Below, piece after piece: positions 17,820-17,835 of a stretch of 64,000 bases of DNA (position 1 is its first letter; every line of letters begins with the position of its first letter). The notes beneath the pieces are model-generated. The model was not told where the DNA came from and did not search any database. It was given only the letters and a program-made list of their open reading frames with translations. The DNA is from Escherichia coli. Its GTDB lineage: Bacteria > Pseudomonadota > Gammaproteobacteria > Enterobacterales > Enterobacteriaceae. A program made the translations under genes and the position numbers. Location of the stretch: assembly GCF_003334335.1 (NCBI RefSeq), contig NZ_QOWQ01000017.1. One strand, written 5' to 3'.

Positions 17820-17835
17820 CTGATTAAAAACCCAG
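17820..17835 (+). promoter_or_regulatory. LexA-box-like CTG-N10-CAG element upstream of ybfE
   Basis: ctgattaaaaacccag; I recall ybfE as a LexA-regulon member. Confidence 0.45.

Follow-up and report, generated by a model that had tools for sequence, protein, structure and literature searches.

A weak, lineage-restricted LexA-type box upstream of ybfE in Escherichia coli

Does the LexA-type box that lies between ybfF and ybfE in Escherichia coli work as an SOS operator, and does it account for the damage response that has been reported for ybfE? The question is raised by a 16-mer, CTGATTAAAAACCCAG, in a 64,000-nucleotide stretch of E. coli DNA, the whole of which is called the window below. 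A preliminary description of the window, made from its letters, had noted this 16-mer upstream of a gene for a small ribbon-helix-helix-like protein, and had suggested from it that ybfE is inducible by DNA damage. Our preferred reading, to which we give a probability of about 60%, is that the box is a marginal, lineage-restricted match to a LexA operator, which would at most be a low-affinity site and would affect ybfE transcription little or only under some conditions.

The gene order in the window is rhsC-kdp-speF-pgm-seqA-ybfF-ybfE-fldA-uof-fur-...-mrdB, which is that of the E. coli chromosome, and the window is 99.9% identical to MG1655, with about 37 scattered substitutions. Two larger differences were seen away from ybfE. 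The window is without the IS5 copy that is found in MG1655 upstream of gltI (about 32900-33200), and in the Met-Leu-Gln tRNA array (about 40580) the copy number is unlike that of MG1655, the window being without part of the array. The window therefore comes from an E. coli strain other than K-12. The features around the box are collected in Table 1.

Table 1. Features of the ybfF-ybfE region, in window coordinates.
Feature	Position	Strand	Remarks
LexA-type box, 20-mer AACTGATTAAAAACCCAGCG, the published ybfE box	17818..17837	+	16-mer core 17820-17835; HI 10.87, matrix of 23 verified MG1655 boxes
TGA within the left half of the box	17821..17823	+	in frame with ybfF; 17821-17050 = 771, a multiple of 3
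ybfF (esterase) CDS	17050..17814	+	stop codon TAA in E. coli at 17812-17814
GC-rich hairpin, ybfF 3' end	17830..17870	+	CCCAG, the right half of the box, forms the 5' foot, and the -35 hexamer TTGG(C)G the 3' foot
Sigma-70 promoter-like TTGGCG-18-TATTAT, ybfE(-fldA-uof-fur)	17864..17893	+	consensus scan; RpoD genomic SELEX (PMC3946193)
GC-rich discriminator GGCGCGC, ybfE promoter	17894-17900	+	predicted start ~17900
Small hairpin CCGGGC-AGAG-GCCTGG in the ybfE 5' UTR, then TGATTGTTTCCCC	17908..17923	+	flagged by terminator scan
ybfE CDS, 97 aa, ribbon-helix-helix protein	17954..18247	+	RefSeq model

The box and its heterology index

The 16-mer was read directly on the plus strand at 17820-17835, exactly where the preliminary description had put it. 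It begins 5 bp past the stop codon TAA of ybfF and ends 119 bp before the ATG of ybfE at 17954, in agreement with the distance of about 120 bp given earlier. Both arms of CTG-N10-CAG are present at the correct spacing. Compared with CTGT-N8-ACAG, the arms are CTGA and CCAG, which gives two mismatches, and the site does not appear in the list of sites with one mismatch.

The site is not novel. The ybfE box reportedly goes back to Fernandez De Henestrosa et al. (2000), who searched the whole genome for LexA boxes and are also said to have classed ybfE as LexA-regulated by Northern blots of lexA+, lexA(Def) and lexA(Ind-). The 20-mer AACTGATTAAAAACCCAGCG is reportedly the very sequence given as the LexA box of ybfE in the regulon searches of 2000-2001 in E. 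coli K-12. The gene is the same, the published heterology index (HI) of about 11 corresponds to 10.87 here, and no difference between the two was found, so that the site at 17818-17837 is the published ybfE LexA box. Reviews place ybfE in the E. coli LexA regulon, and a study of 2024 tabulated its LexA box with an HI of 11 and termed it a predicted weak box. This changes little for the SOS field, where lists of the LexA regulon have included ybfE since 2000 and the weak box is already viewed with caution. What is added here to the published box is its position at about -73 from a conserved promoter, its overlap with an ancestral ybfF stop codon and with the foot of a hairpin, and its restriction to a few genera.

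The HI was computed with the formula attributed to Berg-von Hippel / Lewis et al. 1994, in which ln[(consensus count + 0.5)/(observed count + 0.5)] is added up over all positions. As a basis for the matrix served 23 of 24 E. coli LexA boxes, found verbatim upstream of named genes in MG1655; tisAB was left out. The results showed an HI of 10.87 for the ybfE 20-mer, which is within the range of LexA-binding sites (roughly below 12-15) and at its weak edge. Accepted weak sites had in-sample values of 8.9-10.4, and when each was left out of the matrix in turn, polB reached 12.3, dinG 12.4 and recN3 13.2. The preliminary description had proposed the HI as a check of the site, and the value obtained is not far above the functional range. 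With an index inside the accepted weak range, in vitro binding of LexA to the ybfE box is plausible.

Among known operators, the weak ones of polB/dinA, dinG, recN box 3 and ftsK come closest to the ybfE box in score, with comparable leave-one-out HI values of 11.2-13.2 versus 10.87, and all of them, like the ybfE box, have CTG/CAG or near-CTG/CAG arms. They differ in placement, lying 18-86 bp from their start codons, whereas the ybfE box lies 126 bp from its start codon and upstream of the -35 hexamer. The largest single penalty of the ybfE box, 3.66, comes from the A at position 6 (CTGA and not CTGT/G), which is absent from all 23 reference boxes. Because of the dyad symmetry of the operator, A at position 6 is the same as T at position 15, where biochemistry has shown that either G or T makes LexA bind more weakly (PMC5999292).

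The ybfE 20-mer has the lowest HI among the 127,962 20-mers in the window. In first-order Markov random sequences of 64 kb, sites with an HI of 10.87 or lower occurred at a mean of 0.59 per sequence, and at least one such site was present in 46% of the sequences. Since 0.59 equally good sites are found per random 64 kb, the sequence alone can neither establish a function nor tell the site from chance, and scaling to the whole genome means that dozens of equally good chance matches would be expected.

The bare motif CTG-N10-CAG occurred 31 times in the window, versus 13 expected from dinucleotide-preserving shuffles. This excess is probably due to codon usage, CTG and CAG being very common codons in E. 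coli, and the bare motif makes a poor screen for LexA boxes. Other 20-mers of low HI (10.9-11.5) were seen at 11978-11997 on the minus strand in potE, at 49039-49058 on the plus strand 13 nt into ybeT, and at 52295-52314 on the minus strand in ybeQ. Among these three, CTG is kept only in the ybeQ site and CAG in none, and they show the chance background.

Promoter geometry and the hairpin at the ybfF 3' end

A consensus scan found TTGGCG-18-TATTAT as the sole credible sigma-70 promoter between ybfF and ybfE, and genomic SELEX with RpoD holoenzyme assigns the same hexamers, TTGGCG and TATTAT, to ybfE (PMC3946193). RNA-seq has shown a ybfE-fldA-uof-fur operon whose first promoter is off in stationary phase (PMC4161252). 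In 76 sequences from Enterobacteriaceae, no variation was seen in CGTTGGC, in most of the -10 region or in the GC-rich discriminator. As a side observation, the whole promoter region 17862-17903 is almost invariant in these sequences (CGTTGGC ... CTGATGTATkATGGCGCGCT), and its GC-rich discriminator would fit growth-rate or stringent control as well as the reported switch-off in stationary phase.

Measured from the predicted ybfE start (~17900), the centre of the box lies at about -72/-73, and 26 bp separate the end of the 20-mer from the -35 hexamer. The same scan predicted a promoter for 11 reference boxes in 9 operons, with box centres from -52 to +40, so that the ybfE box is the most upstream of all. 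The distance from box centre to ATG was likewise long, 126 bp for ybfE, whereas the reference boxes, each measured against its own gene, gave 16-94 bp. A LexA operator is expected to overlap its promoter or to lie just downstream of it, and with the start as predicted the ybfE box does neither. According to our preferred reading, the conserved sigma-70 promoter 26 bp downstream of the 20-mer would drive ybfE, and LexA at about -73 would leave RNA polymerase unobstructed; LexA occupancy would be weak or absent and would have no regulatory consequence.

The placement of the box looks different from an older start codon of ybfE. Measured from the ATG at 17885, which gives a protein of 120 aa, the distance is 57 bp and the box looks typically placed. 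This older ATG adjoins the -10 hexamer and is upstream of the predicted transcription start. Many database proteins, 119-136 aa long, keep the older N-terminal extension, and conservation starts only at MAKEQTD (17954).

It is also possible, although we consider it doubtful, that LexA acts at the box as at a bona fide SOS operator, gained recently in Escherichia/Citrobacter, and represses ybfE either by blocking read-through from ybfF or by covering a weak, unmapped promoter where ybfF ends. The gene would then truly belong to the LexA regulon, under weak control. The HI of the box, 10.87, in the range of accepted weak sites, is consistent with this. A poor 7/12 site near the box, ATTACG-19-AATGAT, would put the box at +1 to +20. 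As an upstream promoter this candidate is very weak, with a spacer of 19 bp, which argues against such an operator, and no better promoter overlapping the box was found by the scan at relaxed thresholds. The uvrB box offers a precedent for the position, since in the same scan it lies at -52, upstream of a good sigma-70 promoter, P1, like the ybfE box, while serving another promoter. It overlaps a second promoter, P2, which it controls. The ybfE box differs from it in that no credible second promoter overlaps the box.

The right half of the box is part of the GC-rich hairpin at the ybfF 3' end, in which CCCAG pairs in E. coli with the -35 bases TTGG(C)G. Folded as plus-strand RNA, the hairpin at 17830-17870 had an energy of -27.9 kcal/mol (z = -3.4), compared with -16.8 (z = +0.6) for the minus strand. 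Covariation in the 76 sequences was seen as two-sided changes in 7 of the 11 core pairs, and an explicit structure count found 73.5% of the hairpin cells paired, versus 32-52% in slid controls. RNAalifold on a MAFFT alignment missed this hairpin and paired invariant columns instead, and no Rfam family matched 17600-18450.

An intrinsic-terminator U-tract is absent after the hairpin, where the plus strand continues with UGACUCAUCG, and the terminator scan raised no flag there. Since the hairpin after the box is without a U-tract, read-through from ybfF into ybfE is conceivable, which favours the SOS operator described above. The hairpin itself may be a stabiliser of the ybfF 3' end or an atypical terminator. 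A T-run after the hairpin exists only on the minus strand, and a minus-strand terminator, consisting of the hairpin and TTTTTAATCAG, was considered as the main reading of this element. It was rejected because of the poor folding of the minus strand (z = +0.6) and because the many G-U pairs favour the plus strand.

A second, small hairpin was seen in the ybfE 5' UTR (17908-17923). By eye its arms seem to change together between genera, and its energy alone is not significant. Attenuation or control of translation would be possible roles of the segment 17908-17935.

Conservation of the box across Enterobacteriaceae

The conservation of the box was followed in 80 orthologous Enterobacteriaceae loci among the matches listed, and 76 sequences entered the counts of invariance and covariation. 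Among the 80 loci listed, the full CTG-N10-CAG was present only in Escherichia (coli, albertii and sp.), in most Citrobacter, with one change in the spacer, and in Yokenella. At the homologous position the HI was 10.9 in Escherichia, 12.7 in Citrobacter, 12-13.5 in Atlantibacter and 14.5-18.3 in Enterobacter. In Salmonella, which has CAT in place of CAG, it was 16.5, and the ranges for Kluyvera and Klebsiella were 18-22 and 22-28. Outside Escherichia, no box with an HI below 12 was found anywhere in the region from -260 to +20 among the 80 loci listed. A LexA operator is expected to be conserved at orthologous promoters in related genera, and the ybfE box is not conserved in this way. Salmonella keeps the weak boxes of dinG (HI 10.1), uvrD (11.5), recN and polB, and a study of the Salmonella SOS response did not find a ybfE box.

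Within E. coli the region is highly uniform. The 50 bp at 17803-17852 are identical in 5206 of 5425 E. coli genomes, and a sampled variant was changed only outside the box and in a G-U pair of the stem that became G-C. That the box is essentially fixed in E. coli, and is also found in E. albertii and most Citrobacter, would fit a bona fide SOS operator. Against such an operator, most genera are without the box although they keep ybfE together with its promoter and the hairpin.

The two halves of the box behave differently. The left half, TGATTAAAA, is nearly invariant in all genera, with TG and AAAA invariant in the 76 sequences, whereas the right half varies. In most of the 80 loci listed, the long upstream ORF (ybfF) ends at the TGA of the box or at a TAA just before it. 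The conservation of the left half everywhere is due to the ancestral TGA stop of ybfF and the A-tract within it.

The same invariance of TG and AAAA across many genera, with a variable right half, would also fit a core, TGATTAAAAA, that is a site for another factor or a DNA-shape element serving the ybfE promoter, the likeness to a LexA box being incidental. Autoregulation by YbfE would be one example, and ribbon-helix-helix proteins commonly autoregulate. We regard this explanation as improbable. In most genera the TGA is accounted for as the stop codon of ybfF, neither a second half-site nor a repeat of the motif was seen, and the position of the core, about -66 to -78, is upstream of the normal positions of UP elements.

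We therefore return to the reading of the box as a marginal match. On this reading, the box looks like a by-product of three other elements and not like a selected operator. Its left half, aaCTGAttaaaaa, would be the ancestral ybfF stop codon TGA together with a conserved A-tract, and its right half, CCCAG, would be the 5' foot of the conserved hairpin, paired with the invariant TTGG of the -35 hexamer. With the stop codon and A-tract on one side and the hairpin foot on the other, both halves of the box are explained by other constraints, and only the G that completes CAG is lineage-variable. This G was found in Escherichia, most Citrobacter, Yokenella and a few others (Trabulsiella and some Enterobacter). 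In Trabulsiella and those Enterobacter that have it, the C of CTG is lost from the left half.

A more tentative view, which we hold as possible and not as probable, is that the box is an evolutionary accident or a nascent operator, put together in Escherichia/Citrobacter out of the foot of a hairpin, a stop codon and an A-tract, and that conserved control would lie in the covarying hairpin across the -35 hexamer and in the invariant promoter with its GC-rich discriminator. If this is true, the product name 'LexA regulated protein', which a family model carries over to Salmonella, Klebsiella, Enterobacter, Kluyvera and others, would be unsupported in them. RefSeq uses this product name for ybfE in every E. 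coli genome listed, and as a caveat, the 'LexA regulated' label is also borne by orthologues in genera without the box. The name should not be relied on where ybfE is used as an SOS reporter, or where SOS control is inferred in other Enterobacteriaceae. The locus would also illustrate, on a small scale, how unrelated constraints such as a stop codon, an A-tract and a stem in RNA can give rise to a motif like that of a transcription factor.

Published damage responses and the YbfE protein

Published expression data on ybfE are mixed. A plasmid with the ybfE promoter fused to GFP responded to UV, with odd kinetics, and was excluded as an outlier. In RNA-seq of 2024, AZT induced ybfE 4-fold, and lexA3 did not lower its expression (0.74-fold lexA dependence). 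In the AZT study of 2024, ybfE showed a 2.9-fold SspA dependence, and the authors regarded it as not lexA-dependent. Ciprofloxacin gave no induction of the ybfE transcript, and no value for this transcript is listed in a ciprofloxacin study of EHEC. In Salmonella, where the box is absent, nalidixic acid induces ybfE; MX gave no ybfE induction in Salmonella.

The damage inducibility suggested in the preliminary description is supported in part, by the UV reporter and by the 4-fold induction with AZT, but not with regard to dependence on LexA cleavage (lexA3) or to ciprofloxacin. The step from the box to a LexA-mediated damage response is not secure, given the far-upstream geometry, the narrow conservation and the mixed induction in published work. 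The same data bear on the bona fide SOS operator from both sides. The listing of ybfE as a member of the LexA regulon and the UV response of its reporter agree with such an operator, whereas the AZT induction independent of LexA cleavage, the lack of induction by ciprofloxacin and the induction of ybfE in Salmonella without the box argue against it. Because the box lies far upstream of the ybfE promoter, the reported damage response of ybfE would be mostly LexA-independent.

The product of ybfE had been described as ribbon-helix-helix-like, and a profile search confirmed this, with a match of residues 52-89 of YbfE to positions 1-38 of the 39 in the Pfam model RHH_1 (E=2.9e-10). YbfE also matched the NCBIfam model NF008671, 'LexA regulated protein', with 169 bits against a cut-off of 62, and carries a precomputed match to PF10723. 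It shares the RHH_1 domain with CopG/CopB-type repressors, and weak matches to RepA/CopB-like and antitoxin ribbon-helix-helix families were seen. Unlike these repressors, YbfE has a basic N-terminal extension of 50 residues that is almost invariant. No significant Pfam match was found for residues 1-50, and a PDB sequence search with YbfE gave nothing significant (best E=0.21).

This basic N-terminal half (residues 1-50; 17954-18100) is more conserved than the ribbon-helix-helix domain and is almost invariant across 11 genera, and the first residues of the 97-aa YbfE are invariant in the 11 genera. A direct repeat, TGATG-TA-TGATG, overlaps the -10 hexamer of ybfE in most genera, and YbfE itself, as a ribbon-helix-helix protein, could use it as an operator.
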